From the NCBI GenBank assembly GCA_903944345.1, contig CAJARJ010000009.1, forward strand, positions 1,875 to 65,874: a stretch of 64,000 bases of DNA. Direction: 5' to 3'. The notes under the pieces are model-generated. The model did no database searches, had not been told where the DNA came from, and saw nothing but the letters and a program-made list of their open reading frames with translations. Made by a program: the position numbers and the translations under genes. Source of the DNA: Candidatus Omnitrophota bacterium (GTDB lineage: Bacteria; Omnitrophota; Gorgyraeia; Zapsychrales; Fredricksoniimonadaceae). Positions 30,193 through 64,000 of this stretch are shown one piece after another (the stretch's first letter is position 1; each line of letters begins with the position of its first letter).

Positions 30193-30198
30193 TTTGCT

Positions 30199-49363: not shown

Positions 49364-50296
49364 CTAACATTCTTCGCCTTCACATTCCCCCTGGTACTCG
49401 TTCTCCGGCTGATAGAAAGGCGGTTCATAATCCTCATATGAATTCTGAAAAGAATCGTCATAGGAGTCATGTGTATCTCTGATTTCATCCAGAGTTTCCA
49501 TCGCCTTGATCTCATCCACAAACTCCTTGGTCTCCGCAACAATTTCTGTTGTCTGTAACTCTTCGGAGATTTGTTCTATCTCTTCAACAATCTCCTGCTC
49601 ACCCGGGAGGTCGTCCTGCGGCTCCTGTTGATCAGGGAGTTCGCGGGTTTCTCTACCTTCACTATGCTCAAATACTCGCTCGAAAACCCTGTCCGAACGC
49701 CGGAAATCCCTGTCGGTAATCTGAGAGAACGACCCCGGCTCCGAAAAACGTTCAATCAGGGTCTTGAAACCTTCCGGCAACATCAGTTCCGCAAGCTGCT
49801 GGTTATCCTCATCAAATGTTTTAATAAATACCGTATCCTTAATAGCCATGACTTCATCGGTGTCTTTCTCAACATAAACAGACAAACTGCTGCCTCTTAC
49901 CCCGGCGATAGCCGAAGGAGTATTAATTTCAAAACTTAAACCAGACTTGATGTTTTCAAGATTCGCATAAACACGGCCTTTGGAAAGATCCAGCCGATCA
50001 ATGATTCCTGGAGCAGAAGAATTCAGCACAACCTGAGTCTTTTGCTCGATTCTGATCGTATTTTTCTTGTCAGTATCCAGGGCAATATCAACCAGAGAAT
50101 TCCTTGCGGTACGAACAACGTCGCCTATCCCCAGCTGCATGCCAGTTTCGACTTTCTTCCAATCGCTTGCCTGCGCAGACATGGTCTGGACACTCCCCTG
50201 CACAAAGACAACTTCTGCCGCGAAAGAAATCATCTGGAATATGGCAACAAGCACAAGCGCCAGAATTCCCGAAAGAAAAGTTTGCTGTTTTTTCAT
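49364..50296 (-). CDS. FecR-domain secreted protein with acidic C-terminal tail ending in CEGEEC
   Basis: Signal peptide, then FecR-like region (VQGSVQ...ETGMQLGIGDVVRTARNSLVDIAL...RVYANLE), then a D/E-rich tail. Confidence 0.65.
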   Translation of the reverse strand: MKKQQTFLSGILALVLVAIFQMISFAAEVVFVQGSVQTMSAQASDWKKVETGMQLGIGDVVRTARNSLVDIALDTDKKNTIRIEQKTQVVLNSSAPGIIDRLDLSKGRVYANLENIKSGLSFEINTPSAIAGVRGSSLSVYVEKDTDEVMAIKDTVFIKTFDEDNQQLAELMLPEGFKTLIERFSEPGSFSQITDRDFRRSDRVFERVFEHSEGRETRELPDQQEPQDDLPGEQEIVEEIEQISEELQTTEIVAETKEFVDEIKAMETLDEIRDTHDSYDDSFQNSYEDYEPPFYQPENEYQGECEGEEC

Positions 50297-50352: not shown

Positions 50353-52155
50353 TTAGAAACCCTTTGTGACCGAGAACCAGGTATGGGTATGATCCCCATC
50401 AACCGACTGAATCTCCGGAACCAACGGGAACCCGCAATCCACACGAACAGAGACATTCTGTTCAGGTACGTTGTATTTAAACCCTACTCCAGCTGATGTC
50501 AGCGTATTAGCCTTATCATCACCCTCTTTAGGACTCTTCAATGCGCCATAACTCCAATCAACAAAAGTGAACAATCTTAAGGAATCATATATCTTGGTCT
50601 TTGTAGAAAACGGCACATACGCAGAACGGGAGAGAAAGTACGGAGGAAATTCCAGACCGACATTCATGGCATGACCGTTATCAGCCGGGAACTGGGTTCG
50701 CGGATAGCCGCGATTGTCGATAACTCCGTTAAATCCGCCCATACTGAATGAATTGACACCGGTAAGGGTCGCCGATGTTATCTGCCAACGGGCTTTAGCT
50801 GTAAGATCTACACCTGGTATCAATTTCTGTCGCCTGGCAACAGTTAAAAGATTCTTAACAAAATCTCCCTTGGCTCCCGCGACAGAAGCAGTATCTGATT
50901 TGCGCGGAGTTCCGGCCAGAAAATCCGGGATGCCTTGCTGAAGATCGTTTGTAATAACCCAACGTCCATACTTATCCGCACGATTCAAGGCCAGATCCCA
51001 CTTGGCAACACGATACTCATCCCTTTTAGCGGGACTATCGTAATCCTGATAAGGCTTATACCACCAGATATCAAAATATGTAAACCCATAGCTGGAAACC
51101 AGCTCAACATCAGGTTCATTAATCAACGATTGATAGAACCAGAAATAAAACTTTCTGGCACGTTTCTCAAAGTCAGTTTCCTGATTGTCCCTGGCGTAAT
51201 AATCTTCAGATTTATAAGGCAGCAGATAAAACTGAAAACGCCAGATATCGTTGAGCGGAATACTATAGTCAAAATCAACAATTTTATGCGCATCGGCTTC
51301 GGCCCACTCAACTTTGGCGGTTAACGTATCATCATGGCCGGAGATGTTATTATGCGATACAAAAGTTTTGTAACGATAATACAGGATAGTATCGGCACCG
51401 TAATTGTCTGCCTGGAGAGTAACATGCACCGGCGAACGCTCTTTGATGTTCAGGACAATATTAGTATCCCCGGTAGATGTATCTGGTTCCAGAGAGATGC
51501 TGGCTTTGCGGTCCTGCGCCTTGTTCATTCTAAAAACATCCAAATTCAAATGCTTGAAATTGAAAATTGCTCCTTCTTCCTGAGAAATTTTTTTTCTAAG
51601 AAGCTCGGTTGAAAAAACCTTGTTACCCCTGATTTCAATCTTTCCAACCCGCCCCTCAACAACCACAATCTCCAGAACGCCATCAGGAAGCCGGTCAGGT
51701 TTGATATAAGCATAAGAGGTAATATAACCTTCCCGACTATAAGCGCGGTTAACCAGATCGGCACAACGGCGCATGTCGCGGGCAGAAATTTCTTTTCCTT
51801 CGTAATCGGCTTTCAGGCTGGCCAAGGCTTCATCTGCCAGCAAAGTAGAACCGGTCACAACAACCTCGCGGATTTTCGTTTTTCCTTCAGGAAGCTCATA
51901 ACGGGGAATCATGGATTCCCTGGTCTTGAGAATGGTCACTGCAGGAGACTTGGCAGCCTTCTCGGAAAGCATGGTCGAAACCTGAAACGATTGAGGATCA
52001 TCCTCACCAGCACCCTCATCATACGCGCTAGCACAGGGAGCTAGCAATAAAATACAGGACAGAAAAACAACCGGAACAGCTAGAAATCGGCAAAGTTTGT
52101 TCCGCACGCACATATCTGTCATAAATACTTCCTCCTGGCGTTTCTTACCCAACAA
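50353..52155 (-). CDS. ShlB/FhaC/HecB-family two-partner-secretion outer-membrane transporter (TpsB; POTRA + 16-strand barrel)
   Basis: 600 aa: signal peptide, POTRA-like regions (EVVVTGSTLL..., VLEIVVVEGRVGKIEIRGNKVFSTELL), ShlB-type barrel, terminal Phe. No TpsA-like partner in the window. Confidence 0.75.
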   Translation of the reverse strand: MLGKKRQEEVFMTDMCVRNKLCRFLAVPVVFLSCILLLAPCASAYDEGAGEDDPQSFQVSTMLSEKAAKSPAVTILKTRESMIPRYELPEGKTKIREVVVTGSTLLADEALASLKADYEGKEISARDMRRCADLVNRAYSREGYITSYAYIKPDRLPDGVLEIVVVEGRVGKIEIRGNKVFSTELLRKKISQEEGAIFNFKHLNLDVFRMNKAQDRKASISLEPDTSTGDTNIVLNIKERSPVHVTLQADNYGADTILYYRYKTFVSHNNISGHDDTLTAKVEWAEADAHKIVDFDYSIPLNDIWRFQFYLLPYKSEDYYARDNQETDFEKRARKFYFWFYQSLINEPDVELVSSYGFTYFDIWWYKPYQDYDSPAKRDEYRVAKWDLALNRADKYGRWVITNDLQQGIPDFLAGTPRKSDTASVAGAKGDFVKNLLTVARRQKLIPGVDLTAKARWQITSATLTGVNSFSMGGFNGVIDNRGYPRTQFPADNGHAMNVGLEFPPYFLSRSAYVPFSTKTKIYDSLRLFTFVDWSYGALKSPKEGDDKANTLTSAGVGFKYNVPEQNVSVRVDCGFPLVPEIQSVDGDHTHTWFSVTKGF

Positions 52156-52365: not shown

Positions 52366-53226
52366 CTATGATTCACTGCCCACTCCGAACTCGAAAATAA
52401 CATAATACTGCATCTGGTCATCATCGGTAAACCACTCCCCGTCCGGGCCAACAGATATATATTTATGATCTTCAGCCTTGTTCGCGTCAGCGCCATAAAG
52501 AGTTTCTTTCGCCGAAGAAGCAACGTCGTCGGCTGTAAACCATTCCCCGTCCGTACCCTTACCATCATGATCAACATGATACTCAAGCATTTTAGTCATT
52601 TGCCCCGAAGCAGAATATTCGAACCGATGGTACTTTTCCAGCTCATCCCCCGTGTAATCCTCGGCCCGAACCTGCTGTCCATACTCATCATAGGAGTACA
52701 AAATCTTGCAGGTTTTCCTTTTATCAGAATAGATTGTTGTCTTGCTGGACTTGCGTCCTTGCTGATCGTATTCGTAAGTAGTTGTTGAAAGAAGCTCATA
52801 TTTCTTTCTTCTGGATTGTCCATCAAAAGACTTTTCTTTTATCAACTGGCCATCAAAACCGTATTCCATAACCTGAAACTCTTTTAACTTGTCATCATAA
52901 GTAAACGGAATACGATCCTCACCTGGTAAATAACGAAAACTGCGCAGAAGTCTTCCGGTTTTGGCATCACGTTCAATCTGGTAATGCTCGTAAACCATGT
53001 CGTCGTCGGAAAACCACACCTTGTCCGGACCAGCCACATATTTGATCTCTTTGTCCACAACAATATCTACGGTCTTCTCGGCGGGAATTTCCAGTTTCTC
53101 CTCCATGCCGATTTTTCCCACTTCCACCAAAAGATCGTCTATCCCGCGTTCCTGTGAGAACGCCGCCCCAGTAGATAACATAACTGCAAAAACAAGTGCT
53201 GAAATAGAAAAAGCAGTCCGCCTCAT
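52366..53226 (-). CDS. small secreted YD/RHS-repeat-like protein
   Basis: Signal peptide. YD-type repeats FTYDDKLKEF, YEYDQQGRKSS, YSYDEYGQQVR, FEYSASGQMTK. Three copies of a G-x-D-x-(E/V)-W-F-(T/S)-DDD motif. Confidence 0.55.
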   Translation of the reverse strand: MRRTAFSISALVFAVMLSTGAAFSQERGIDDLLVEVGKIGMEEKLEIPAEKTVDIVVDKEIKYVAGPDKVWFSDDDMVYEHYQIERDAKTGRLLRSFRYLPGEDRIPFTYDDKLKEFQVMEYGFDGQLIKEKSFDGQSRRKKYELLSTTTYEYDQQGRKSSKTTIYSDKRKTCKILYSYDEYGQQVRAEDYTGDELEKYHRFEYSASGQMTKMLEYHVDHDGKGTDGEWFTADDVASSAKETLYGADANKAEDHKYISVGPDGEWFTDDDQMQYYVIFEFGVGSES

Positions 53227-54314
53227 TTGCCGCTCCCCTCCGGTTCTGTAATACGGCTCAAGGTTGAGGCATCCGCGGTGACTTTAACCACACGAAAACC
53301 AATAACCTGCCGACTTAAGAAATCGTAACTGCGAAAACTGTTGTCATAGATTTCCGGATGCATAACCGTATCCATAATGAACGGGCGACCCATTTCCTTG
53401 CGATATTCGGTATCCAGAAGAAAACTTCCCCCGCGCAAAACCCTTGCAGCCTGAAACTTCTTGAAAACAGGCAGGTTAAAATAAAGTTTCTGACCAGGCC
53501 CAATCGGGTCTGTCTCATTCTCGGAACCAGTATAGGAATCCAGATACCAGTCATTGCACCATTCGGCTACATTCCCAACAAGATCCGTGATCCCAAGAGT
53601 ATTATCCCCCTCAGGCGAGAAAGCCCCAACCGGAAGAGTATCAACATCCACCGGATTCTTGACCTTGTGTCCGGCATTGGCCTTCTTTTCAAAACCTTTG
53701 CCTTCCCCCCAGGGAAACGGACGACGATCAGAGAAACTGGCGGCGTACTCCCACTCGGCCTCAGTAGGAAGACGATAACCTGTCGCACCATAAACCTGAG
53801 CGGACCAGTCATCCAGATTATAAAGAGGGGTTAAACCTTCACTCTCACTTAACATATTACAATAGAAGGCTGCGCCATACCAGCTGACCTCGACCACGGG
53901 ATAATCTTCTTTCCCGGAATGCGCCCGAAAACGGCCATTTTCATATGTGATCTGGGAATGTTCGTCAAAAATATCCTGATATTTCTGTGGCGACCGGGAA
54001 ACCCCTTTTGCCTCTCTTTTCTTTGAACTTTCGGACAAAACTGTTTTGTCCAGATAACCTTTCGACAAGGCATAGTTAAGTGCATCCGCATACTGCTGGT
54101 TGGTTATCTCGTATTTTCCCATATGGAAATCCTTGCTGATATGGACAGTATGCACGGGACGAGCATTTGAGAAACGCGCATTGCCCATCTGAAATGAACC
54201 GGCAGGCACCCGGACAAGTTCCGGAGCCTGCAGCTGAGCTTGTGAAATTCTGCTATAAAACAAGAGGCCGAAAAATAGCATGAGAACGGCAAAAGCAAAA
54301 GACATCTTTTTCAT
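53223..54314 (-). CDS. secreted FGE-sulfatase (SUMF1/formylglycine-generating enzyme) domain protein
   Basis: Signal peptide plus family blocks RVPAGSFQMG, YRLPTEAEWEYAA, GNVAEWCNDWY, RVLRGGSF. Confidence 0.8.
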   Translation of the reverse strand: MKKMSFAFAVLMLFFGLLFYSRISQAQLQAPELVRVPAGSFQMGNARFSNARPVHTVHISKDFHMGKYEITNQQYADALNYALSKGYLDKTVLSESSKKREAKGVSRSPQKYQDIFDEHSQITYENGRFRAHSGKEDYPVVEVSWYGAAFYCNMLSESEGLTPLYNLDDWSAQVYGATGYRLPTEAEWEYAASFSDRRPFPWGEGKGFEKKANAGHKVKNPVDVDTLPVGAFSPEGDNTLGITDLVGNVAEWCNDWYLDSYTGSENETDPIGPGQKLYFNLPVFKKFQAARVLRGGSFLLDTEYRKEMGRPFIMDTVMHPEIYDNSFRSYDFLSRQVIGFRVVKVTADASTLSRITEPEGSGK

Positions 54315-54375
54315 ATAACTCCTCTTGATTGAAAGGTCATGCCTCGATCACAACAAATCTACCCTGCCCAAGAAA

Positions 54376-55995
54376 CTAGAATCCCAGACGGCAACCACTA
54401 TTCTTGCCATCCTCGCTCTTGGGAAAGTTCGCGGCAAAACGCAGCGACACCCTTAAATATTTAGGTTCCGGACTGGACCAGACTCCTCCGCGATTACCTG
54501 CACCTGCCCCGTCTTTTCCGGGCCAGTTGGATACATTCGCAAAACCGTCCTGAGTCAAGGCACCATCTCCTCTTTGAGCAACAAAGCTCCGGCCCAAAGT
54601 ATGTCCAATGGTCACGCAACGCTCCCAAAGGTTTCCGCTCAAATTCCGAACTCCATAATAAGACGCCCCGGTGTTGATCCTCTCGCTCACATCCCCCTGA
54701 AGCGTATTCTCAAAAATCTCTCCGCTCACCGGCCCCTCGAAACCCGGATTATCAGGAGCAGTTTTCTTGCCGACATCAAAAGGAGCAATCCCGCCACCAA
54801 AACAGGCATTAACCACCCCTTTCTGGGGCACCTTCTTTTCATATCCGCTGCCATCCGCCCCGTCAAACGTATCGACACGACCAATCTTTTCGATATCTTC
54901 CATCGCAACCCCCCAGGACAATTCGTTAACCAGAGGCTTGCCGGGACCGCGTGCGGCCTTTTCGTATTCCAATTCGGTAATCGGACGAAGACCGGCCCAG
55001 TCGGCTATAGCCGCAATATTCGACCAGGACATAAAATTGACCGCACGTGCCGGCGCATACGTATAAAATTTGACCGGATCAATTGTGCCATTCCCTTTTT
55101 TGGCAGTCACAATGGCATTACGCAGATGCTCTTCTGCGCTGTTGGTTTTGACATAATAGTTCTTGATCTCGTCCTGGCTGATGTCAGCCTCGACCATGCT
55201 TTGCTGCTGCTTGCGATCCAAAGTATTGAGGAAGTCCACAAATTGCTGGGAGCTCAGCTCATACTTCATAATCCAGAAAGGATCAAAACCCTTGGGGAAA
55301 GCTGCCGGAATTGTGAACGGAACATCTTCCCGGCTGCGCGGATTATCCTGGTCGCAGTAAAGGGCCCCGTCAACCTTATCGACAAGAATAGAATCTTCGG
55401 ATTTAATCTGATAAGAGCCTTTATCAGGATATGAATAGAAACTGTTATCGGGGCCATTGGGGCCTTTGGGATCTCCTACATAGAATTCCCCGCGCGGCAC
55501 ATGGACCATTTCCAGTCCCATCACCTGAACCGGGGACTGCATTAACTGGGCATCAGAGATGCCTTCTTTAGAATAGTCCCACAATATCCGAACATTTTTT
55601 GAAAGGGAGTTTCCATTACCTTTGGTTCTAAAAAGAAACCCTCCGGTTTTCTCCTCAGGAATCCACATCCCCATATCTGCACCATCCCCCCTGGAAAACA
55701 TGTCCGGCGTATGATCAAGATAATCAAAAGAACCCGCGCTGGCTGTCTTGAGACTCACATGCTTCCAAAGCCCCTCCGGGGTCTTATACTTGGCGAAAAA
55801 CCAGACCCCGTCAGAATTGGTCTCGTTCTTCCAGGAATTCTCCCAGACGATATTAAATTGCAGCGTGGCAATCTTGTCCTGGGTATTGACCTCACTGATC
55901 ATCACCTTGTCAATCTTCAGATGACTGGCAAATGCCTGCCCCGAAAGAGCTAAAAAAACCGCCGAAACAATCAGGAACAAAAACAATTTCTTCAT
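54376..55995 (-). CDS. secreted FGE-sulfatase-domain protein with a ~200-aa N-terminal extra domain
   Basis: Signal peptide MKKLFLFLIVSAVFLALSGQAFA (ATG about 55995; ORF track extends to 56127). C-terminal FGE blocks RPITELEYEKAARG, GNLWERC, NRGGVWSS. Confidence 0.75.
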   Translation of the reverse strand: MKKLFLFLIVSAVFLALSGQAFASHLKIDKVMISEVNTQDKIATLQFNIVWENSWKNETNSDGVWFFAKYKTPEGLWKHVSLKTASAGSFDYLDHTPDMFSRGDGADMGMWIPEEKTGGFLFRTKGNGNSLSKNVRILWDYSKEGISDAQLMQSPVQVMGLEMVHVPRGEFYVGDPKGPNGPDNSFYSYPDKGSYQIKSEDSILVDKVDGALYCDQDNPRSREDVPFTIPAAFPKGFDPFWIMKYELSSQQFVDFLNTLDRKQQQSMVEADISQDEIKNYYVKTNSAEEHLRNAIVTAKKGNGTIDPVKFYTYAPARAVNFMSWSNIAAIADWAGLRPITELEYEKAARGPGKPLVNELSWGVAMEDIEKIGRVDTFDGADGSGYEKKVPQKGVVNACFGGGIAPFDVGKKTAPDNPGFEGPVSGEIFENTLQGDVSERINTGASYYGVRNLSGNLWERCVTIGHTLGRSFVAQRGDGALTQDGFANVSNWPGKDGAGAGNRGGVWSSPEPKYLRVSLRFAANFPKSEDGKNSGCRLGF

Positions 55996-56020
55996 AACGT
56001 CTCCTTCTAAAGAACAAATT

Positions 56021-57448
56021 TTAATGATGACCCGGGACTTTGACTGCCGCATACTCCTTAAACCCTCCCTGACGCACAGATTTGATCGCACTGACAAGCG
56101 AAAAAACAGAAGCAACCGCCAGCGCAAAAGCCAGAAAATTGAATTGTGCCCGAAAAAGATCCTGTCCCGGGAAAGAAGAAGCCATTTTCAGGATAACCGG
56201 AGACAAAAATTGTCCCAGGTAAATTCCTACGCTTACAACCGCCATGGAAAAAGCACGGGCAGAATCCGGTGTGACTTTGGCCGCGCGCAAAAGAAGAAGC
56301 GGCATCAGCACCCCGGAACTAAAACCTATACATAACATGGAAATGAAAACTCCTGGCAAAGAAGCTGTCGAACCCAGAAGCATATACCCGACGGCCATGG
56401 AAGCGATCCCTATTACCCCGCAAAAAGGACCCAGAACGCGCAAAAGAGTCGCCAACACCACTCCGGCCACAACCCCAACAATGGTCATCGTGGAAAGAAA
56501 GAAACCCGCAATCCCGGGACGGCCTATTCTTTCTGCCGAAATAACCAAGCCTTCCGGTGTTTTCTTGACTATATAACTGCGGTTGTGATCGGTTATTTTC
56601 CATCTCTTGCCGTCTTCTTCCACCAAAAATACCGCCTCCCCGGAAATATTGATACCGTTCTCCCGGAAAGAAGCAACGGTTGTTGACGAGATTGTTCCAG
56701 AAACCAGATGTGCCTCAAGCTCCGCTCTATCTTTAAACAGAGGGTTGCTGCTTGTATACATCCGGGGTTCATTCTCGATGAACATGGCCAGACTGGTTGG
56801 CGCTGCATAAAAAGCCACCATCATCAACGCCCCCAGCAATGCGCACCAGAAAACCTCCAGCGGCAACTTTGCCTTGGCTGCGCCCGTAACCGGCTTGATC
56901 TCGGGTTCAGGCAGCCAAACCATAACCATAACCATAATCACAAGGGATAAAGCATAAACACCAAAAGAGTACCGCCAGCTCATGCACGCCAGCCAACCGG
57001 AAAGCAAAAGAAAAACAACTCCGCCAAAATGCGAAACCGATCCGGACAACCCCATCATCCGTGCCCGCTCTTCTTTCTGGCAGAAATCGGCAATCAGGCT
57101 GATCGAAAGTGGAATAATAAGTCCTACCCCAACGCCAAAAAGAGCCCGGATCACCAACAACTGAGGTACAGAATTTGCCAGTCCGCCACCTACCCCTCCC
57201 AGAAAATAAATAACCAGCCCAATCAAAAGAATCTGCTTTTTCTTCATTCGTGTGGCCAGCCATCCTCCCAGCAAACTAAAAGGGACAATCAACAAAGACG
57301 GCAAGGTCAAAATCAATTTAATAAGAGTCGGATCCGTACCCGGAAAAGCCTGACTGATTTTGGCCAGAGCAGGCGAAATTGCGGCCGAGGCCATAACTGT
57401 CAAAAGAGATATCGACAAAATACTGGTTTTAACAAGAAGATCGTTCAT
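56021..57448 (-). CDS. MFS transporter with an ~95-aa soluble insertion between the two six-helix halves
   Basis: 12 hydrophobic segments. The central loop is RMYTSSNPLFKDRAELEAHLVSGTISSTTVASFRENGINISGEAVFLVEEDGKRWKITDHNRSYIVKKTPEGLVISAERIGRPG. Confidence 0.75.
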   Translation of the reverse strand: MNDLLVKTSILSISLLTVMASAAISPALAKISQAFPGTDPTLIKLILTLPSLLIVPFSLLGGWLATRMKKKQILLIGLVIYFLGGVGGGLANSVPQLLVIRALFGVGVGLIIPLSISLIADFCQKEERARMMGLSGSVSHFGGVVFLLLSGWLACMSWRYSFGVYALSLVIMVMVMVWLPEPEIKPVTGAAKAKLPLEVFWCALLGALMMVAFYAAPTSLAMFIENEPRMYTSSNPLFKDRAELEAHLVSGTISSTTVASFRENGINISGEAVFLVEEDGKRWKITDHNRSYIVKKTPEGLVISAERIGRPGIAGFFLSTMTIVGVVAGVVLATLLRVLGPFCGVIGIASMAVGYMLLGSTASLPGVFISMLCIGFSSGVLMPLLLLRAAKVTPDSARAFSMAVVSVGIYLGQFLSPVILKMASSFPGQDLFRAQFNFLAFALAVASVFSLVSAIKSVRQGGFKEYAAVKVPGHH

Positions 57449-58038
57449 TTCCCTCTCCCCTTAAGCTGTTGAAGCAGGGCCAAACCAAAAGCATCCGCCG
57501 AATCCGGACCGTCTGCGGTAATGATCTTTTCATCTTGTTCGACAGGTTGGGCTGTATACAGCGCCCCGGACTGTTTTAATACCTCCCCTTCCGAGGGATA
57601 CACAGTCGCTCTCTTGTCTTTAAGAACTCCGGCACTGGCCAGAACCCTTGGAGCAAGACAGATCGCACCAATAACTTTGTCTTTTTCAACAGCCTCTTTG
57701 GCCAGACGGTGAGCAACAGGATCATTGATATACTGCATTGCCCCTGAACCCCCGATAAAAACAACCGCATCGTAATTCTCGACATTGACTTCCGTATAAA
57801 GAAGCTCGGGGACAGTCTTCATTCCATTCATTCCGGTCACCTCATCAAGAGTAGAAGATGCGACCGTCACCTCAACCCCCTCGGCTTCAAGGATGGCCAG
57901 TGGGCGGGCGAATTCATCATCCTGAAAGTCTTTCTCGGCTATCAGAAAAACTGCTTTCTGGGGAATCTCCTGGGCACAAACCACACCCGTCCCCATCATC
58001 AGAACAACCATAAAAACAGCAGTTAAAAACTTTTTCAT
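57445..58038 (-). CDS. secreted DJ-1/PfpI-family protein
   Basis: Signal peptide, then the nucleophile elbow GAICLAPRVL. Overlaps the MFS start by 4 nt. Confidence 0.75.
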   Translation of the reverse strand: MKKFLTAVFMVVLMMGTGVVCAQEIPQKAVFLIAEKDFQDDEFARPLAILEAEGVEVTVASSTLDEVTGMNGMKTVPELLYTEVNVENYDAVVFIGGSGAMQYINDPVAHRLAKEAVEKDKVIGAICLAPRVLASAGVLKDKRATVYPSEGEVLKQSGALYTAQPVEQDEKIITADGPDSADAFGLALLQQLKGRGK

Positions 58039-60050
58039 GAATTGGCTCCCGCTTTGCTGATTAACCGTACCGGACGAAAAGGATATTTACCTTCTTTTTT
58101 ACCAGCATAATATCCATCGTAACCAAACTGAAAATTGACCCCCCAGCCAAAGGTATCCCCATAAGTTGTACTGGACCAATAAAAACCCAGCGGCGCGATC
58201 TTTGTCTCCGGAAAGAAAGCTTGATGAAACCAGCTGCCGTTTTTATAAGAAAGATCGATTAATGAACCAATCTCCCTGATAGACGGCAGATGCCAGTCTG
58301 TATGCCCGGCCAGCTCGAGATCCTGACAATAACGCAAGGCATCTGCCCAGTTCAACTCGGGGCCTTCATCTTTCTTCCACATCAAGCCTGTGTTCAAATC
58401 ACTCACCGTGCCGTCGTTATTATCCAGCAATGAGCAACGCTCTGCATCGGCAGAAATTTTCTTGTACCCGCCTCGTACTGCTCGTACAGGATAATAAAAG
58501 CTTTTCAGATAACAAATCGCACAACCATAAGCAAAATAAATACCCCAGGCAAAAAGCGGCTCCTTGTTATTGGATTCTTTTGACCAATAAAACGCCGGCA
58601 GGCAATCCGCAAAGAACTTCGGATCAGCCGCAGGAATTTGTCCATTATAATCAACCATCATCCGCAACTCTTCCCGGGCAGGCAAGCGCCAATCACGAAA
58701 TCCGCCGTATCCCCGGCGGTTGATCTCACGAATATAATCGTGGGCATCCTCCCAGGTGTACGCTAACCCCTGAAAATTGAAATCATTCGGTGCAGGAGAT
58801 TTGCTCTCCCAGACAAGCCCGGTGTTATTATCCCGAATCATGCGCAATCCCTGTTCCCAGCCGGTGCTATCCTCTGTTTCGCGTCCGCCCTCGGTAAGCT
58901 TGGTAAAAGATAAAGGATTAAAACTGCGGGATCCGTCCTGTCCGTAATAAAGTTCTCCCTTCAGGGGCTTTTGAATAATGCTGCCGCTATCGTCATAACA
59001 AACCTTCTGTCCTGAATCAGGAAACGTCATTCCGGTCGTAACACTAAACTGCGCAGGAACGCTGTTACGTACCGCACGAAAAAGCAGTCTGGCATTCTTG
59101 CTGGCATAATAACCGTCATAACCAAAACAAAAATTGGTCACCCATACATAAATCCCTTCATAGGGTGTCGAAGAAAAATAATGCAACAAGGGCGGCTTGA
59201 GTCCATCAGCCGGAAAAAAATTCTTGAAGTACCACCAGCCGTTATCGTGATCAAGATTCAGAATAGAGTTAAGCTCTTTCAAATTCGGCAAACGCCAGTC
59301 AGAATGCCCGGCCAAACGCATCTCCCGGCAGTTCTTCAGGGCAGAATACCAGTCCATGCGTTCATTTTCGCCTTTCTGCCACATAAGACCTGTGAGCGAA
59401 TCAGTAACCGTACCATCGGCATTATCCTGAAATCTGGTCTGATCCGCCTGACCGAATCTGCGATCATAACCGCCTCTGACCGCGATCACAAAACGCTCGC
59501 TGACCGGGCTATAACAAATTCCACTGCCCAGTCCAAGAAAAATTCCCCAAACGAAGGGTTTCTGCATGTTATACGGCACAGAAGTCCAATAGAAATCACT
59601 CTGACAGCCAGGGAAATAGCGCGGATCCAGTGCCGGCCCTGTTCGGCCATAATCTATGATCGAGCGTAATTCATCCTTATTAGGCAGACGCCAATCAGAA
59701 AAACCGCCATATTTGTTTTTGTTAAGCTTGTCTATATAAGCCGTACCCGCCTGCTCCCAGGTGTAACGATCCGCAGTATAATTAACATCGCCCTTTTGGG
59801 GAGATTTAACTTCCCACACCAAACCGGTATTATTGTCCAGAACAGCACGGTAACCATCTGCCCACGAACAATCATCAGCGATGCTTTTGCCATTCTTGCC
59901 CAGTTTGGCAAATGACATGGGATTAACCTGAAAACAGCCGTTTTGACCCCAAAGCTCATCTTGAGGAGATACACTAGTCTCGCGCCCTTCCCGATCAAAA
60001 CACCTGATCGTGCCGGCATCCGGCAGTCGGAATAACTTTGTCTGTTTCAT
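58035..60050 (-). CDS. protein built of four tandem DUF1566 (Lcl C-terminal domain) repeats, no signal peptide
   Basis: Four ~150-aa repeats, each with DNNTGL(V/M)W(E/Q)xKS...W..A..Y(I/C).......(Y/W)GG(F/R)(S/R)DWRLP(N/S/A)..EL.S(I/L/M)(I/V)D. Confidence 0.65.
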   Translation of the reverse strand: MKQTKLFRLPDAGTIRCFDREGRETSVSPQDELWGQNGCFQVNPMSFAKLGKNGKSIADDCSWADGYRAVLDNNTGLVWEVKSPQKGDVNYTADRYTWEQAGTAYIDKLNKNKYGGFSDWRLPNKDELRSIIDYGRTGPALDPRYFPGCQSDFYWTSVPYNMQKPFVWGIFLGLGSGICYSPVSERFVIAVRGGYDRRFGQADQTRFQDNADGTVTDSLTGLMWQKGENERMDWYSALKNCREMRLAGHSDWRLPNLKELNSILNLDHDNGWWYFKNFFPADGLKPPLLHYFSSTPYEGIYVWVTNFCFGYDGYYASKNARLLFRAVRNSVPAQFSVTTGMTFPDSGQKVCYDDSGSIIQKPLKGELYYGQDGSRSFNPLSFTKLTEGGRETEDSTGWEQGLRMIRDNNTGLVWESKSPAPNDFNFQGLAYTWEDAHDYIREINRRGYGGFRDWRLPAREELRMMVDYNGQIPAADPKFFADCLPAFYWSKESNNKEPLFAWGIYFAYGCAICYLKSFYYPVRAVRGGYKKISADAERCSLLDNNDGTVSDLNTGLMWKKDEGPELNWADALRYCQDLELAGHTDWHLPSIREIGSLIDLSYKNGSWFHQAFFPETKIAPLGFYWSSTTYGDTFGWGVNFQFGYDGYYAGKKEGKYPFRPVRLISKAGANS

Positions 60051-60445
60051 AATGCCTCCATAATCTCAATCAGGATCCCATCCGGGTCTTTAATAAAAAA
60101 ATAGCGGGCGCCATTGTCAAACGAGCGAAGAGGCGTAGCCATTGCAACGCCGGCTTTAAGAAATTTGCTGTATACAGGGCGAATCCGATCCACTTCGACC
60201 GAGAAATGCTTGACCCCAAGAGTTCGCAAATCCCGATCCAGTTCCCGCCGGTAAGCTGGAAGGGGTTTGTGTTTCCGGAACTCAAAAAGTTCAAGAACCA
60301 GACCCTCTTTACGCATCATCACAATCGAAAAACCACGATCGGGATACGCATAGGTATTCGTCGTTCTAAGACCAAAGAAGCGCCGATAGAACTGAACCGA
60401 CTGCGACAGATCAGAAACACTCAGTGCGATATGACCCAGCCTCAC
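60047..60445 (-). CDS. VOC-family (glyoxalase/bleomycin-resistance/dioxygenase fold) protein
   Basis: 132 aa, MRLGHIALSVSDLSQSVQFYRRFFGL... is a typical VOC N-terminus. Confidence 0.7.
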   Translation of the reverse strand: MRLGHIALSVSDLSQSVQFYRRFFGLRTTNTYAYPDRGFSIVMMRKEGLVLELFEFRKHKPLPAYRRELDRDLRTLGVKHFSVEVDRIRPVYSKFLKAGVAMATPLRSFDNGARYFFIKDPDGILIEIMEAL

Positions 60446-62094
60446 ACCCGCCCCAATCCGAATGGCGGATAGACCTCGGATTCAACCACAACATCGATCA
60501 GAGCAGATTTCCCGCAGGCCAGCGCCTTCTGGAAAGTCGCGTCAAAATCTTCCAGTTTCTCAACCCGGGCACCAAAAGCCTTGCAGGCATCAGCATACTT
60601 GACGAAATCAGGGTTATCAAACTGCATAAAAGCCTGGTCACCAAACATGTTGAGCAAAAACTTTTTGATCACATTAAATTCGCCATTATTGAAAATAACC
60701 CAGACAACCGGAATATTGTACTGAATAGCTGTCATCAGCTCGAATCCGGCCATCTGATAAGCTCCATCCCCGCAGCCACAAACTACCGTTCGCTCCGGAT
60801 GAGCGCACTTGACGCCAATAACACCATTAACATGACTGGCCATAGGCCCGAAACTTCCGGGATTCTGATAAAGCTGATAACGCTCCAGTTTCAGATAACA
60901 GTTCAGCCAGAGCATATGCGAACCGGCATCTCCCATAATGATTGCATTTTCCGGCAGATTGCGCGATATCGCCCGGACCAGATCGGCGGGATGAATCTTC
61001 TTCCCCGGAGACTGCACCGGAAGGTCGTACCATTTTTCTGTCGTCACCTTCTTGGGTTCGATTGTCCCGACCAAAGAAGCGAGCGCGGCATTCAGGGCCA
61101 GAATGGCAGGTTTTGCATCACTCAAAACCGCAAAATCGGGTTTGTAAACCTTTCCGATCTCATGCGGATCAATATTCACATGGATTAAGGTTTTGTCTTT
61201 AAAAAGATCGGCTTTGAAAGCAAAGGTAGCGTTCTGCGCAAACGAATTACCAATGGCCAGAACAATCTTGCTGGTATCAAAATATTTGTTCGCCCCCGGA
61301 TCTCCGGAGGTGCCATAGACTCCAAGACATAGCGGATGATTCTCCGGAATAATCCCCTTGGCATCCATCGTCGCAGTGAAGGGAATCTGGTAACGTTCAA
61401 GAAAGGCCAGGATCTCTTTTTCTCCATGACTTCTGATAATCCCGTAACCCAGAATCGCCATAACCTGATCACGATTGTTGATGCCTGCGGCCAGAGCGGA
61501 AACAGCCGAACGAATCTGGGATTCCTGCGGCTGAACCTGTTTAATATCCAGACGAATCTTCCTGAAATTATTGACCTTGGCAATCGTTATATCTTTGGGA
61601 ACATGAATATGCACCGGTCCGGGGCGACCCTCATAAGCCAGATTAATCGCCTCCTCGAGAATATCGCATACCGTATCGGCATCTTCAATAATAAATGATT
61701 TCTTGGTCGTTGCATTGAACATCTTTGGCGCATCGGGCGTACGGCTCAAACCGGTTGATTCGTTAAGGGCGCCTTTACCCCGATCCCTAGAAGAAGTAAA
61801 GCCGGATATAGCCAAAACCGGCAAAGAATCGGAATATGCAACCGCCAGACCGGAAAGCAGATTAAATTCTCCCGGGCCTCCGGTAGCAAAACAAACTCCC
61901 AGCTTGTCGGAAAACATGGCATATCCACAAGCCATAAAAGAAGCGGCCTGCTCATTACGGATAATCACGGTCTTGATCTGCGTTGACTTCTTGAGGGCCA
62001 GCAGCATCGAGCCATTAACTTGTCCGGATCCGCCAAACACATGATCAACCCCGATTTCTTCCAGTGCCGAAACGATCGCCTCATTGACGTCCAT
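60442..62094 (-). CDS. thiamine-pyrophosphate-dependent enzyme (acetolactate synthase / benzoylformate decarboxylase-like)
   Basis: N-terminal Pyr domain (GVDHVFGGSG, GGPGEFNLLSGLAVAYSDSLPVLAISG) and C-terminal TPP motif GCGDGAYQM...VIFNNGEFN. Confidence 0.75.
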   Translation of the reverse strand: MDVNEAIVSALEEIGVDHVFGGSGQVNGSMLLALKKSTQIKTVIIRNEQAASFMACGYAMFSDKLGVCFATGGPGEFNLLSGLAVAYSDSLPVLAISGFTSSRDRGKGALNESTGLSRTPDAPKMFNATTKKSFIIEDADTVCDILEEAINLAYEGRPGPVHIHVPKDITIAKVNNFRKIRLDIKQVQPQESQIRSAVSALAAGINNRDQVMAILGYGIIRSHGEKEILAFLERYQIPFTATMDAKGIIPENHPLCLGVYGTSGDPGANKYFDTSKIVLAIGNSFAQNATFAFKADLFKDKTLIHVNIDPHEIGKVYKPDFAVLSDAKPAILALNAALASLVGTIEPKKVTTEKWYDLPVQSPGKKIHPADLVRAISRNLPENAIIMGDAGSHMLWLNCYLKLERYQLYQNPGSFGPMASHVNGVIGVKCAHPERTVVCGCGDGAYQMAGFELMTAIQYNIPVVWVIFNNGEFNVIKKFLLNMFGDQAFMQFDNPDFVKYADACKAFGARVEKLEDFDATFQKALACGKSALIDVVVESEVYPPFGLGRV

Positions 62095-62105
62095 TGTTAC
62101 TCCCC

Positions 62106-62327
62106 TTACTTTGTCTGATTGAACTTCCCGACAGCCATCTTGGGCGGACGCTTGGAGAAAAGTACCCCGTCACAAGCCGCATTATCCAAAGTGTGCCCGT
62201 TAAAAAACAGATAAATACGATCCTTGGGAACCTTGGAAACTTCCGAAAAAATTGTTATATATTTATCGGCAAGAATCTCTTTTTGTTCATCGGTCAACTC
62301 TAAAGAATGAATCATGATTGCAGGCAT
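62106..62327 (-). CDS. 4-oxalocrotonate-tautomerase-family protein
   Basis: 73 aa beginning MP (the catalytic Pro1 arrangement) with tautomerase-size beta-alpha-beta. Confidence 0.55.
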   Translation of the reverse strand: MPAIMIHSLELTDEQKEILADKYITIFSEVSKVPKDRIYLFFNGHTLDNAACDGVLFSKRPPKMAVGKFNQTK

Positions 62328-62344
62328 ATGGCAAGCTCCCGGGA

Positions 62345-62390
62345 GTAAAAGTTCTCCCGCCTGCCTCCTGAGAACAGAGACAGACGGGAG
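62345..62390 (-). terminator. stem-loop with short U-tract between the DJ-1 paralog and the tautomerase gene (possible attenuator or partial terminator)
   Basis: An imperfect ~14-bp inverted repeat CTCCCGCCTGCCTC...GAGACAGACGGGAG with 9-nt loop. On the transcribed strand it is followed by AACUUUUAC. Confidence 0.3.
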
Positions 62391-62406
62391 AGCGGTTATG
62401 CTGGAA

Positions 62407-63183
62407 TTACTTCAATGTCGCAAGAACTTCAGCGATTTTCTTGCCATAGGCAATGGAAGACTCAACGGATGTTCCGGTCACAAAAGGCCAGTCAAAAGCC
62501 ACTTCAGGATTGTCGCGGTTAGCCTTGTAATTGGCCACACAAACGCCATTAGGGCCAACAGCATCACGCACCAGGTGCTCCAGCGGCCACAGGAAACCGG
62601 GAGTATGAACGTCAGTCCCCTTGTTATCGGCGGTTGTACCGTAGAGATCATAGGTAAAATCCCATTCCGGGCCATAGAAATCCCAGGAAGCCGGATGAGC
62701 GGCAACGCGCTTGCCGTAAATAACGCTCTTCATATCCTGCTGCGGATCGCGCAAGAAAACCAGAGCAGAAACGGAATAGCACAAAGCGCCTACCAGTTTA
62801 TTAGTGCGGATCGCGTCCAGAATAAGCTTATGCAAACTCCAGTTATTGGCCATGTCGATCATCGCGCCCAACCCGCCGGTCAGAACAATACAATCATAAT
62901 CAGCCATCTTGGCATCCTTGAACTTGATGGATTTGGCCCACTCGTTGCCATCGGTCAATTCCTTGATACGCTTGCAGACATCCGGAGGATTGGTCTTGGC
63001 GTTGATGACCGGATCGGTGAAATCAGGATTCATACTGACTGCCAGTGGCAGGGGTTTTTTACCCTGAGGAGTCGCCAGCGTCAACTCATGGCCGGCGGCT
63101 TTGAGAATATCCCAGGGAGCCTGAAGCTCTTCTCCCCATGTTCCGTAATTTGTCGCACAGATTAAAACTTTCTTCTTACCCAT
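62407..63183 (-). CDS. DJ-1/PfpI / class-I glutamine-amidotransferase-like family protein
   Basis: 258 aa; KKVLICATN..., conserved Cys in LVGALCYSVSAL and His further C-terminal. Confidence 0.65.
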   Translation of the reverse strand: MGKKKVLICATNYGTWGEELQAPWDILKAAGHELTLATPQGKKPLPLAVSMNPDFTDPVINAKTNPPDVCKRIKELTDGNEWAKSIKFKDAKMADYDCIVLTGGLGAMIDMANNWSLHKLILDAIRTNKLVGALCYSVSALVFLRDPQQDMKSVIYGKRVAAHPASWDFYGPEWDFTYDLYGTTADNKGTDVHTPGFLWPLEHLVRDAVGPNGVCVANYKANRDNPEVAFDWPFVTGTSVESSIAYGKKIAEVLATLK

Positions 63184-63221
63184 TCGATCCTCCTTGTATT
63201 AATTTAAACTACCCGCCTGAT

Positions 63222-63602
63222 TCAATACTTCCGAGATGGCTTTTTTGCTGCAGCCTTTTTGCCCGTCTGACTCTTTTCCATCCACGGGAAATCTTTCTTG
63301 ACCGGAGTAAAAAGGTCAATAGCTTCCGTCTGTCCGACCGCAATAAACTCATGCAAAACATTCGCAGGAATAAAATAGGCATCGCCCGCCTTGAGCACGG
63401 CCTTCTCTCCGCCAATATCCATCTTGAAACCACCCTTGATCACGTACCCGAACTGTTCCTGCTTGTGTTTGTGCATCTTGACCACACTCTTGTCAGCCAT
63501 ATCCCAGTGCTGGGCATTAAGCTTTTTGCTTTCCCCCAAATACTGACGGATCACCCCGCCGCCCATATCAAACTTCTCAAGCTTGCTCCTGAACACATAC
63601 AT
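63222..63602 (-). CDS. cupin-domain protein
   Basis: 126 aa with cupin motifs HKHKQEQFGYVIKG and GDAYFIPANVLHEF. Confidence 0.65.
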   Translation of the reverse strand: MYVFRSKLEKFDMGGGVIRQYLGESKKLNAQHWDMADKSVVKMHKHKQEQFGYVIKGGFKMDIGGEKAVLKAGDAYFIPANVLHEFIAVGQTEAIDLFTPVKKDFPWMEKSQTGKKAAAKKPSRKY

Positions 63603-63631
63603 TATATTGCCTCTTTCGTTTCAATTTATTT

Positions 63632-64000
63632 TCAGGCCGAAATCAAATCAATAATCTTTCGGGCAAATAAATTGCAATGCCCCCCGCTGCGGGCAGTCAC
63701 CAGATCTCCATCCACTACAACATCCTGATCACAATAAACTGCCCCCATATTTCTGGCATCACCCACAAGATTATTGTGCACAACCAGCTTTCGTCCTCTG
63801 ACCAGTTCCGGAGCAGAGGCTGCCAGCCACAAACCATGACAAATGATCCCTTTGATAATAGTCTTTTCAGCGAAAACTCTCTTGAGAAACTCCACCGCCG
63901 GAGGAAGAACATTGACATCCTGGGTATAACGCAAACGATCCGCAACCATTCCAGCCGGGACAATGATGGCCGAGTAACTTTTTAATTCCTCAGCCGACAT
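63632..64000 (-). CDS. DJ-1/PfpI-family protein, C-terminal part (gene likely continues upstream beyond the window end)
   Basis: Elbow motif GIICHGLWLAASA and ...GDLVTARSGGHCNLFARKII. The window ends exactly on an in-frame ATG, but the N-terminus is probably outside. Confidence 0.65.
   Translation of the reverse strand: MSAEELKSYSAIIVPAGMVADRLRYTQDVNVLPPAVEFLKRVFAEKTIIKGIICHGLWLAASAPELVRGRKLVVHNNLVGDARNMGAVYCDQDVVVDGDLVTARSGGHCNLFARKIIDLISA

Follow-up and report, generated by a model that had tools for sequence, protein, structure and literature searches.

A twelve-gene array of Candidatus Omnitrophota as the downstream part of a conserved icfG-type gene block extended by two undescribed modules

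What could unite twelve closely packed, co-directional genes that encode small enzymes, a transporter, two proteins of the FGE-sulfatase fold, a four-domain DUF1566 protein and a secreted repeat-like protein in a Candidatus Omnitrophota bacterium? The array occupies positions 52,366 to 64,000 of a 64,000-nucleotide stretch, here called the window, of contig CAJARJ010000009.1 (assembly GCA_903944345.1, positions 1,875 to 65,874 of the forward strand), and an earlier annotation made from the letters alone, the original prediction, had singled it out as the most plausible site of an undescribed system. We find that the array belongs to a conserved block of about 22 genes in several modules, of which it makes up the 3' (downstream) part, and that in this block a cluster of the type of the cyanobacterial icfG operon (module M1) is extended by two undescribed modules: M2, formed by two DJ-1-type proteins (DJ-1c and DJ-1b), a cupin, a conserved hairpin, a 4-oxalocrotonate-tautomerase-family protein (4-OT) and a thiamine diphosphate (ThDP)-dependent enzyme (TPP enzyme), and M3, formed by the FGE-fold protein FGE2, the 4xDUF1566 protein and an MFS transporter with an insertion in its central loop. 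The cluster is real; from its gene content we infer, with a probability of roughly 40%, a carbon-status and stress system in which carbon overflow and reactive carbonyls would be handled under the control of a partner switch.

The array and its continuation beyond the window

In order of transcription, the features of the array are the following:

63632..64000, minus strand: DJ-1c, PfpI/YhbO-like DJ-1 family (Pfam DJ-1_PfpI), with its 3' 122 codons within the window
63222..63602, minus strand: small cupin of 126 aa (Pfam Cupin_2, 3e-16)
62407..63183, minus strand: DJ-1b, ThiJ_like/DJ-1 family, 258 aa (Pfam ThiJ_like, 49.7 bits)
62353..62391, minus strand: 16-bp GC-rich hairpin in the gap between DJ-1b and 4-OT (terminator scan)
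62106..62327, minus strand: 4-oxalocrotonate-tautomerase-family protein, 73 aa (Pfam Tautomerase, 22.8 against a cutoff of 22)
60442..62094, minus strand: ThDP-dependent enzyme of the acetolactate-synthase-like superfamily, 550 aa, with all three TPP domains (Pfam)
60047..60445, minus strand: VOC/glyoxalase-I-like protein, 132 aa, GTG start (Pfam Glyoxalase, 2.6e-17)
58035..60050, minus strand: 4xDUF1566/Lcl_C protein, 671 aa, predicted to be cytoplasmic (four Lcl_C stretches, 1.7e-107)
57445..58038, minus strand: secreted DJ-1/PfpI paralogue, 197 aa (Pfam DJ-1_PfpI, 2.4e-41)
56021..57448, minus strand: MFS transporter, 475 aa, with an insertion of ~90 aa in the central loop (MFS_1 in two stretches)
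54376..55995, minus strand: FGE2, 539 aa, with signal peptide, Ig/FnIII-like sandwich and divergent FGE/C-type-lectin-like fold (Pfam FGE-sulfatase, 44.6 bits)
53223..54314, minus strand: FGE1, secreted FGE-fold protein, 363 aa (Pfam FGE-sulfatase, 158 bits)
52366..53226, minus strand: YD-like secreted protein, 286 aa, fast-evolving, with marginal YD/RHS-repeat similarity

The twelve open reading frames (ORFs) of the original prediction are all confirmed, strand and coordinates included, and the same holds for the domain labels given to them, since Pfam returned FGE-sulfatase twice, DJ-1_PfpI three times and Lcl_C four times, together with MFS_1, Glyoxalase, TPP, Tautomerase and Cupin_2; across the window, Pfam annotation covered the called ORFs, of which there are 59, except for four in or beside the array. 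The start of FGE2 is placed at an inner ATG at 55995, which leaves a gap of 25 nt to the MFS gene. The five 4-nt overlaps that had been described as ATGA-type are present, four of them as ATGA and the one between the VOC and TPP genes as GTGA, but they occur at just 5 of the 11 junctions and the description of the array as mostly translationally coupled was too strong; moreover, the largest gap is not the 61 nt between FGE1 and FGE2 but the 79 nt between DJ-1b and 4-OT, with the hairpin inside. Co-directionality and overlaps were both rejected as evidence for a unit, being genome-wide features: the minus strand carries 54 of the 59 genes of the window, and 4-nt overlaps are found at 7 of 40 junctions elsewhere in it (Fisher p = 0.10 in comparison with the array). 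In fact, a complete Bat/MoxR-type operon at 23272-31194 (minus strand), comprising MoxR AAA_3, DUF58, DUF4381, two VWA/BatA-like genes, TPR, BatD and TPR-SH3, is linked through ATGA overlaps in the same way, so that these overlaps are to be regarded as a general habit of this genome. The GC composition across the array revealed no anomaly.

The boundaries of the array at twelve genes turned out to be artificial, the block running upstream past 64000 and downstream to ~45.3 kb. The TPP protein was matched exactly on metagenome contigs of up to 171 kb, and Pfam annotation of these contigs places beyond position 64000, on the same strand, the genes of M1: a 606-aa protein of the AGE superfamily of sugar 2-epimerases/isomerases, a STAS protein, an isoamylase/GlgX, a second STAS protein and a fusion of an RsbW-type kinase, a cyclic nucleotide monophosphate (cNMP)-binding domain and a SpoIIE/PP2C phosphatase. 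The end of the fusion gene overlaps by 1 nt the start of DJ-1c, whose full gene encodes 187 aa and is matched at 100% identity in two loci (L001 and L002). A divergent gene for an Rrf2 regulator precedes the AGE-like gene, upstream of which synteny across loci breaks; at the other end it breaks downstream of a cyclase gene, where, after a divergent DUF3307 gene, housekeeping genes begin (LemA, M48, RecG, RsmD, CoaD, PlsX, FabH).

The proteins of M1 carry the hallmarks expected of their families. Both STAS proteins contain the phosphorylatable-serine motif ISSAG, and the cNMP-binding domain in the PP2C gene is found only in the Omnitrophota seen and in Spirochaetota, other phyla having other sensor domains. 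The isoamylase/GlgX has CBM48, alpha-amylase and isoamylase C-terminal domains, and glycogen-debranching-type enzymes normally work on internal stores. The window itself encodes, at 10175-12217 (minus strand), a GlgE-type maltosyltransferase, for alpha-glucan synthesis from maltose-1-phosphate; the glucan that the isoamylase upstream of the array would debranch is thus one that this organism makes. As for the AGE-like protein (L002, 1598-3418), its best 120 matches listed (P0001-P0120) are all at least 66% identical (66-89%) and non-cyanobacterial, and belong to Omnitrophota, Elusimicrobiota, Bacteroidota, Latescibacterota, Gemmatimonadota, Desantisbacteria and Riflebacteria; more than 200 columns are invariant across 25 sequences, and additional beta domains stand at each end of the (alpha/alpha)6 barrel.

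The icfG operon of Synechocystis PCC 6803 (slr1852-1862) encodes the AGE-type epimerase Slr1855, the STAS protein Slr1856, the isoamylase GlgX2 (Slr1857), a second STAS protein (Slr1859), the PP2C phosphatase IcfG and the RsbW-like kinase/anti-SigC Slr1861; it has been implicated in the coordination of inorganic-carbon and glucose metabolism, with a partner switch that ties the state of both to sigma-factor use (PMC12329169, PMC8670252). M1 matches it in all six protein types and, for the first four (AGE-like, STAS, isoamylase, STAS), in their order, and shows the features by which a cluster of icfG type can be recognised, i.e., two STAS genes flanking the isoamylase gene, genes for PP2C and an RsbW-like kinase and an adjacent AGE-type gene, all co-directional. 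Unlike in the cyanobacterial operon, the kinase precedes PP2C, the two being fused in Omnitrophota around the cNMP-binding domain; M2 and M3, which have not been reported for that operon, are carried along; and the carriers are non-phototrophic, mostly anaerobic lineages. Genes of the CMD family recur in the versions of the block outside Omnitrophota, and slr1853 of the icfG operon is annotated as a member of this family.

A second parallel is offered by Bacillus subtilis, in which the SigB regulon, governed by the RsbU/V/W partner switch, lists ydaP, ydaE and yfkM. Of these, ydaP encodes a ThDP enzyme resembling pyruvate oxidase, ydaE a sugar isomerase of the cupin family and yfkM a protein of the DJ-1/PfpI family. 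In both cases a PP2C/STAS/RsbW switch is associated with genes of this kind, but those of Bacillus are scattered and sigma-driven, whereas here they are physically linked and accompanied by lectin-fold proteins and glycogen genes; the parallel is, by analogy, one of function and not a homology of organisation.

Three modules that stay together across phyla

The comparison comprised 79 genome loci anchored on the TPP protein and searched with the proteins of the window, with clustering of all ORFs, and 17 metagenome loci anchored on FGE2. The original prediction had named synteny in close relatives as its own test, and the array passed it in many Omnitrophota metagenome-assembled genomes (MAGs) and metagenome contigs. 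The nearest genome relatives of the TPP protein are MAGs of Candidatus Omnitrophota, with up to 83% identity, and the complete order from the AGE-like to the YD-like gene is repeated in many Omnitrophota genomes and metagenome contigs in which the TPP protein is 70-83% identical; the 17 FGE2-anchored loci show the same array.

Beyond Omnitrophota, the three modules co-occur in no fewer than 12 further lineages of phylum rank, also where they stand in a shuffled order. M1 and M2 are found together in Bacteroidota, Spirochaetota, Riflebacteria, Bacillota, Armatimonadota, Elusimicrobia and Hydrogenedentes, as well as in Balneolales, Deltaproteobacteria, one alphaproteobacterium, an Actinoplanes isolate, UASB270 and a contig binned as Methanotrichaceae, and FGE2, the DUF1566 protein and the MFS transporter co-occur in Omnitrophota, Armatimonadota, Wallbacteria, Bacteroidota, Bacillota and others. 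In Armatimonadota the order is TPP–DJ-1b–4-OT–FGE2–FGE–DUF1566–MFS–AGE-like–STAS–GlgX–STAS–kinase–DJ-1c; in Wallbacteria it is kinase–DJ-1c–cupin–DJ-1b–4-OT–TPP–FGE–DUF1566–x–FGE2–MFS, and two more FGE2-bearing contigs have a similar arrangement. Distant FGE2 homologues (50-56% identity), examined one by one, lead back to M1, M2 and M3, and one contig rich in genes of the type IX secretion system (T9SS) retains only FGE2, DUF1566 and MFS. Because M3 stays with M1 and M2 despite the reshuffled order, a classical signature, it appears functionally linked to them. The Streptomyces homologues of the TPP protein (~52% identity), with no partner genes at all, served as an outgroup. Identities are remarkably high for lineages so distant, at 59-73% for the AGE-like protein, 52-69% for the TPP protein and up to 80% for DJ-1b, which indicates strong constraint, horizontal spread, or both. 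The Methanotrichaceae contig is CAWJQJ010000010.1 (locus L027, 175 kb, binned as a Methanotrichaceae archaeon), which carries M2 together with AGE-like and GlgX genes (TPP 68% and DJ-1b 75% identical); this copy on a methanogen-assigned contig reflects either inter-domain transfer or a binning error.

These comparisons change the outline of the system that had been proposed. Its claim to be undescribed has gained strong comparative support, and in the searchable literature we found no description of the cluster, of M2, of M3 or of their linkage to an icfG-type module; but it is larger than envisaged, is anchored to a known regulatory module and follows a different compartment logic. FGE2, DUF1566 and MFS, which accompany the TPP core across phyla, are no unexplained add-on, and the division into cytoplasmic and periplasmic halves was wrong in detail, the 4xDUF1566 protein being cytoplasmic everywhere and FGE2 bearing a signal peptide only in Omnitrophota.

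Versions of the block from Omnitrophota have extra genes, for the VOC protein, the secreted DJ-1, the secreted FGE1, the YD-like protein and a cassette that follows the array in the window and ends with a cyclase:

50353..52155, minus strand: ShlB/FhaC-type outer-membrane protein with POTRA domains (Pfam POTRA_2, POTRA, ShlB)
49364..50296, minus strand: FecR-domain protein (Pfam FecR; syntenic)
48273..49370, minus strand: putative outer-membrane beta-barrel protein, OMP (weak DUF2490/Omp85 matches; syntenic)
45986..48247, minus strand: CHASE2-sensor adenylate/guanylate cyclase (Pfam CHASE2 and Guanylate_cyc), the last co-directional gene of the conserved block
45284..46021, plus strand: divergent DUF3307 protein adjoining the cyclase (Pfam DUF3307)

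The ShlB–FecR–OMP–CHASE2 order is syntenic in all nine Omnitrophota FGE2-anchored loci that reach that far, and ShlB and the CHASE2 cyclase are also syntenic in a distant relative (L104). The gap of 210 nt between the YD-like gene and ShlB contains promoter-like hexamers and an AT-rich palindrome. Eight loci (L005, L011, L013, L015, L016, L025, L034 and L104) have, between the YD-like/FGE genes and ShlB, a gene for a 224-aa Ion_trans_2 (K+-channel-like) protein that is absent from the window. The divergent DUF3307 gene follows the cyclase both in the window (45284-48247) and in L104 (16818-21323), and the next gene in L104 encodes a cNMP-binding domain fused to a ZIP metal transporter, possibly another reader of the cyclase signal. 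Two-partner secretion (TpsA/TpsB) was considered and rejected: a ShlB-type protein is present, but the TPS domain is found in neither the YD-like protein nor any neighbour. In Sinorhizobium meliloti the CHASE2 adenylate cyclases CyaD1/D2/K are associated with the FecR-domain periplasmic protein SMc02177, and NsrA is the outer-membrane protein of that system; in both cases a CHASE2 cyclase is joined by outer-membrane beta-barrel proteins and by one with a FecR domain, but here a fixed four-gene cassette includes a ShlB/POTRA protein and stands beside a cNMP-binding PP2C, and no Clr-type regulator was seen.

The hairpin in the 79-nt gap between DJ-1b and 4-OT is itself a conserved feature of M2. 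In the window the gap, which holds the GC-rich stem of 16 bp (62391-62353, minus strand), folds at -32.8 kcal/mol. Of 40 loci, drawn from many phyla, 37 have a hairpin of -15 kcal/mol or lower in the corresponding gap (median -27), and every other junction has far fewer such hairpins. Its sequence is unconserved among loci, and a T-run often lies 3' of it. A riboswitch or other known RNA was rejected, as Rfam gave no match for this gap or for any part of 52-64 kb even at E = 1. Only 25 nt separate the stem from the start codon of 4-OT in the window, and this leaves little room for a promoter between them. The hairpin would thus not have the look of a clean operon boundary; a partial terminator, an attenuator or an mRNA-stability element that sets unequal levels for M1–DJ-1c–cupin–DJ-1b and for 4-OT–TPP and the following genes would suit it better. 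Being conserved and terminator-like, it argues against one uniform twelve-gene transcript.

It could be asked at this point whether two unrelated neighbours have simply come to lie side by side, i.e., a metabolic/stress operon (M1 and M2) and an envelope-signalling operon (FGE1, FGE2, the YD-like protein, ShlB, FecR, OMP and CHASE2), their adjacency reflecting collinearity. The conserved hairpin that divides the array and the 210-nt gap with promoter-like sites before ShlB fit such a division, as do the co-directionality of the whole window, in which overlaps are common, and the fact that the ShlB–CHASE2 set, the secreted DJ-1 and the YD-like protein do not extend beyond Omnitrophota and their close relatives. 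We nevertheless consider it improbable: FGE2, DUF1566 and MFS go with the TPP core in several distant phyla and in varied orders, FGE1-type lipoproteins lie inside M2 in Bacteroidota, Riflebacteria, Deltaproteobacteria and Balneolales, and synteny stops on each side of the block.

Binding folds and enzymes of M2 and M3

A further explanation for the FGE-fold and DUF1566 proteins would be that they belong to one of the known systems in which such folds are used: sulfatase maturation, ergothioneine or ovothiol synthesis, the PorK/GldK ring of the T9SS or the targets of diversity-generating retroelements (DGRs). These are indeed the known contexts of PF03781 and PF07603, the literature naming both families consisting of DGR papers only, and weak NCBIfam matches to GldK, EgtB, SenA and PvdO were obtained. 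All of them, however, lie 4- to 9-fold under the curated cutoffs (GldK 91 against 350, EgtB 61.7 against 360, SenA 60.8 against 420, PvdO 57.4 against 500), and OvoA (32 against 400) and GldJ (39 against 458) score lower still. As the original prediction had supposed, Pfam on the called ORFs of the window revealed no sulfatase, ergothioneine or T9SS gene, nor was a reverse transcriptase found. The catalytic cysteine pair, whose verification by alignment had been proposed, is absent from both proteins. In the alignment of FGE1 with the formylglycine-generating enzyme of Streptomyces coelicolor, the first catalytic cysteine is replaced by leucine (GGSFLLDTEY versus GGSYLCHDSY) and the next motif position is arginine, the only two cysteines of FGE1 being ~100 residues apart. 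FGE2 has four cysteines (214, 398, 460 and 535), none of them close to another; here the absence of the pair is read from inspection of these four residues, the alignment of its C-terminus to solved FGEs being spurious.

Each of the known systems was thus examined and discarded. A formylglycine-generating enzyme (FGE/SUMF1) is contradicted by the missing C-x4-C pair, which binds Cu(I) in such enzymes, and by the lack of a sulfatase among the window ORFs or the upstream genes; EgtB/OvoA/SenA by the scores below cutoff and by the lack of a DinB-like iron-binding domain in the proteins and of an EgtD-type methyltransferase in the block; PorK/GldK/GldJ by the scores and the lack of T9SS genes in the window; and PvdO by the score and the lack of nonribosomal peptide synthetase (NRPS) or pvd genes. 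As variable proteins of a DGR they are no more convincing, since no repeat of at least 40 nt, and hence none of the template/variable repeat (TR/VR) type, involves the region, the window has no reverse transcriptase, and the proteins are highly conserved among orthologues, C-termini included, instead of hypervariable. A known FGE-fold system is therefore effectively refuted, and the original supposition that these proteins are neither sulfatase maturases nor EgtB/OvoA is borne out by scores, cysteine alignment and domain content alike. The comparison extends to the other systems of this fold (SUMF2, CalU17, ToxD and TvpA), from which the proteins differ in the same lack of the cysteine pair, the DinB domain and the partner genes, and they show no preference for any one subfamily; FGE2 further differs in its added N-terminal Ig-like domain and in being cytoplasmic outside Omnitrophota.

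The signal peptides first noticed on FGE1, FGE2, one DJ-1 and the YD-like protein can indeed be seen, and Omnitrophota relatives keep them. FGE1, which consists of a signal peptide and the FGE domain only, has a signal peptide or lipobox in 21 of 21 orthologues, among them those of Bacteroidota, Riflebacteria, Deltaproteobacteria, Elusimicrobia and Hydrogenedentes. The homologues of FGE2 elsewhere are ~25 residues shorter than those of Omnitrophota and start at the mature LKI motif; 168 positions are invariant among 19 orthologues. The 4xDUF1566 protein is strongly conserved and has no signal peptide in any of 29 orthologues. It resembles the Lcl/DUF1566 adhesins (Legionella Lcl, Leptospira Lsa25, the FimD tip adhesin) in its four Lcl_C domains and in weak NCBIfam matches to Lsa25 and FimD, but it is embedded between enzymes with 4-nt overlaps and lacks a signal peptide, and for these reasons it is a poor fit for a surface adhesin. 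The insertion in the central loop of the MFS transporter is occupied in 19 of 19 family members, with conserved residues; the best NCBIfam matches of the transporter are efflux-type families, all below cutoff.

The label of YD-repeat protein can be maintained only marginally: TIGR01643 is above its cutoff (21.4 against 15.8), with no stretch significant alone, while RHS_repeat (PF05593) remains below it (18.4 against 22). At 286 aa the YD-like protein is far shorter than typical RHS proteins; it contains repeated G-x-D-G-x-W-F-T-x-D-D motifs, has a signal peptide in all orthologues, is 31-41% identical in the Omnitrophota loci of the genome collection and up to 53% in a metagenome contig, and is sometimes duplicated. 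A defence system was also considered and rejected, the PADLOC anti-phage models giving no match for 10 proteins (nine of the array and ShlB). In two Bacteroidales loci (L033 and L042), a 601-aa protein that has two FGE domains but lacks an obvious signal peptide is encoded in the variable tail 3' of the TPP gene, along with two WG-repeat proteins, the 4xDUF1566 protein, an alpha/beta hydrolase and a protein resembling those of the outer membrane; it seems, then, that this position can be filled by one binding-fold protein or another.

The block might instead serve the uptake and catabolism of an external compound or glycan, captured by secreted lectin-fold and YD-like proteins, imported by the MFS transporter and degraded by M2, the AGE-like enzyme and GlgX. 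To this reading we give a low probability. The AGE-like protein and the isoamylase are carbohydrate enzymes, and outer-membrane proteins recur in the variable tails; yet beyond GlgX no glycoside hydrolases are present, nor SusC/D, TonB receptors or binding-protein ABC systems, and secretion is seen for FGE2 in Omnitrophota only and for the 4xDUF1566 protein nowhere. Furthermore, the domain make-up of GlgX is of the glycogen-debranching type, which would point to internal stores.

The small enzymes of the array support the initial description of a set of generic 2-oxo-acid and reactive-carbonyl type, catalytic motifs being intact by inspection in the TPP enzyme, 4-OT, the cupin, the VOC protein and the DJ-1 proteins. 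The TPP gene directly follows that of 4-OT in the 48 loci that have both, with a median gap of 17.5 nt. 4-OT conforms to its family by its length, by its PF01361 score and by its start (MPAIMIH...), in which Pro1 is retained; it is not the DmpI equivalog (NCBIfam 32 against 70), and its identity among loci reaches 94%. DJ-1b is among the most conserved genes of M2 (73-91% identity in most Omnitrophota loci, 57-60% in three) and has one weak relative only in the PDB, 4p5p, while the nearest solved structures to DJ-1c are PfpI, PH1704 and YhbO, its ICHG nucleophile motif being present. In the cupin the His/Glu metal motifs are intact, and its gene is syntenic across phyla. The VOC protein occurs mainly in Omnitrophota versions (42-66% identity); the secreted DJ-1, found only in Omnitrophota loci, has a signal peptide in 11 of 11 orthologues. 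The versions of other phyla carry accessory genes of the "small carbonyl/quinone enzyme" type, i.e., ABM, CMD/AhpD-like, extra cupins, VOC and SDR.

The TPP enzyme scores below every NCBIfam cutoff, and its best match is acetolactate synthase (ALS; 325.5 against 538). The nearest solved structures are BbmA and CsmA (8x3x, 8xod and 8x3z; the best PDB E-values ranging from 3e-82 to 5e-63), followed by ALS, pyruvate oxidase and glyoxylate carboligase. It shares the three-domain ThDP architecture with BbmA/CsmA and the ALS-like enzymes but, unlike the latter, it has neither an ALS small subunit nor an acetolactate decarboxylase among its conserved neighbours and is paired with the 4-OT-family tautomerase. 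On the score and the missing small subunit or alsD partner, its identification as an acetolactate/acetohydroxyacid synthase was rejected.

The nearness of the TPP enzyme to BbmA/CsmA, rather than to metabolic ALS, raises the question of whether the block is a dedicated small-molecule pathway, in which the ThDP carboligase, the tautomerase, the cupin and DJ-1-type hydrolases or amidotransferase-like proteins would perform a cytoplasmic synthesis and the MFS transporter an export, the FGE-fold proteins of Omnitrophota would mature or bind the product in the periplasm as PvdO does for pyoverdine, and the partner switch would only regulate. Several observations agree with this: the MFS transporter is most similar to efflux families, the accessory ABM, CMD and SDR genes look like those of tailoring enzymes, FGE1 is weakly similar to PvdO and secreted in every orthologue, and M2 and M3 remain together despite reshuffling. 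Nevertheless, besides the TPP protein no scaffold-forming enzyme, whether NRPS, polyketide synthase, ligase, ATP-grasp protein or methyltransferase, was recognised in the block of the window or among its annotated recurrent neighbours; FGE-type oxidases need O2, and carriers whose record names point to digesters, sediments and groundwater are likely in many cases to be anaerobes; by signal-peptide prediction FGE2 and DUF1566 are cytoplasmic in most phyla; and the tight physical joining with glycogen genes is left unexplained. For these reasons we regard a biosynthetic pathway as rather unlikely.

A carbon-status system as the tentative reading, and other features of the window

The carbon-status and stress system would work as follows. 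The partner switch would sense carbon or energy status via the two STAS proteins, phosphorylated by the RsbW kinase and dephosphorylated again by PP2C, and in Omnitrophota the cAMP made by the envelope-sensing CHASE2 cyclase may be read by the cNMP domain that the kinase–PP2C fusion contains. GlgX and the AGE-like enzyme would mobilise or remodel stored alpha-glucan; the tautomerase and the ThDP carboligase/decarboxylase could draw off 2-oxo acids; the clearance of reactive 2-oxo-aldehydes or dicarbonyls would fall to the DJ-1, VOC and cupin proteins; and the MFS protein would transport a substrate or product. The lectin-fold proteins (FGE2, FGE1 and DUF1566) would bind a glycan or metabolite or act as a scaffold, and not as oxidases. 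Omnitrophota would have duplicated part of the system into the periplasm, in the form of the secreted DJ-1, FGE1, the YD-like protein and an FGE2 with a signal peptide. Different expression levels of the two halves of the array would result from the hairpin that follows DJ-1b.

Several points weigh against this picture. Co-transcription of the block is putative, and the hairpin may end transcription fully. The gene families clustered from the block include no recognisable sigma factor and nothing else that could serve as an output of the switch, although no search was aimed at one. The link between cAMP and the cNMP domain is drawn from the co-location of their genes, and the likeness to the icfG operon from protein types and gene order rather than from sequence comparison with Slr1855-Slr1861. 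No array protein reached an NCBIfam equivalog cutoff, and the substrates named for the enzymes are no more than candidates. BbmA/CsmA as nearest relatives of the TPP enzyme may point to biosynthesis rather than to overflow metabolism; finally, a binding role for the lectin-fold proteins is a guess, and the 168 invariant positions of FGE2 would suit an enzyme too.

A possible, if doubtful, variant gives M2 and M3 a biochemistry of their own: together they would form an undescribed, horizontally spread system, gated by the icfG-type switch, that turns 2-oxo acids or sugars derived from glycogen into a specific metabolite or signal. In such a system, two cytoplasmic proteins of the C-type-lectin fold, the divergent FGE-fold protein and the 4xDUF1566 protein, could work with the tautomerase/ThDP pair, the two unusual DJ-1 proteins and the loop-modified MFS transporter; if true, it would give the FGE-fold and DUF1566 domains their first intracellular, non-oxidative role.

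The icfG partner-switching operon has so far been studied only in cyanobacteria, and a module of the same type is found here in a dozen non-photosynthetic phyla, always with the DJ-1/cupin/tautomerase/ThDP set and often with FGE-fold and DUF1566 proteins. This linkage gives the partner switch a concrete candidate output and makes one testable unit of several families described as domains of unknown function; for FGE-fold and DUF1566 proteins, whose members described elsewhere are oxidases, envelope proteins, adhesins or hypervariable receptors, a conserved pairing with enzymes in the cytoplasm would be new. The records of Actinoplanes sp. NPDC023936 and of Balneolaceae bacterium ANBcel3 lack the MAG label, so that experiments may be possible.

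A few features of the window stand apart from the block. Three consecutive plus-strand ORFs at 44-1699 (201, 130 and 192 aa), which are among the five window genes outside the minus strand, have no Pfam match, and a 799-aa ORF at 16786-19185 (minus strand), directly upstream of tRNA-Lys(CTT) (16626-16701), has none even at E = 0.01. Beside this tRNA gene, an 86-nt segment consisting of its 3' end and its terminator hairpin is duplicated with 99% identity 169 nt downstream (16392-16477 and 16561-16646), with a second, adjoining repeat pair of 60 nt (16096-16155 and 16339-16398); these repeats suggest either a local duplication or the att-site-type scar of an integrative element.

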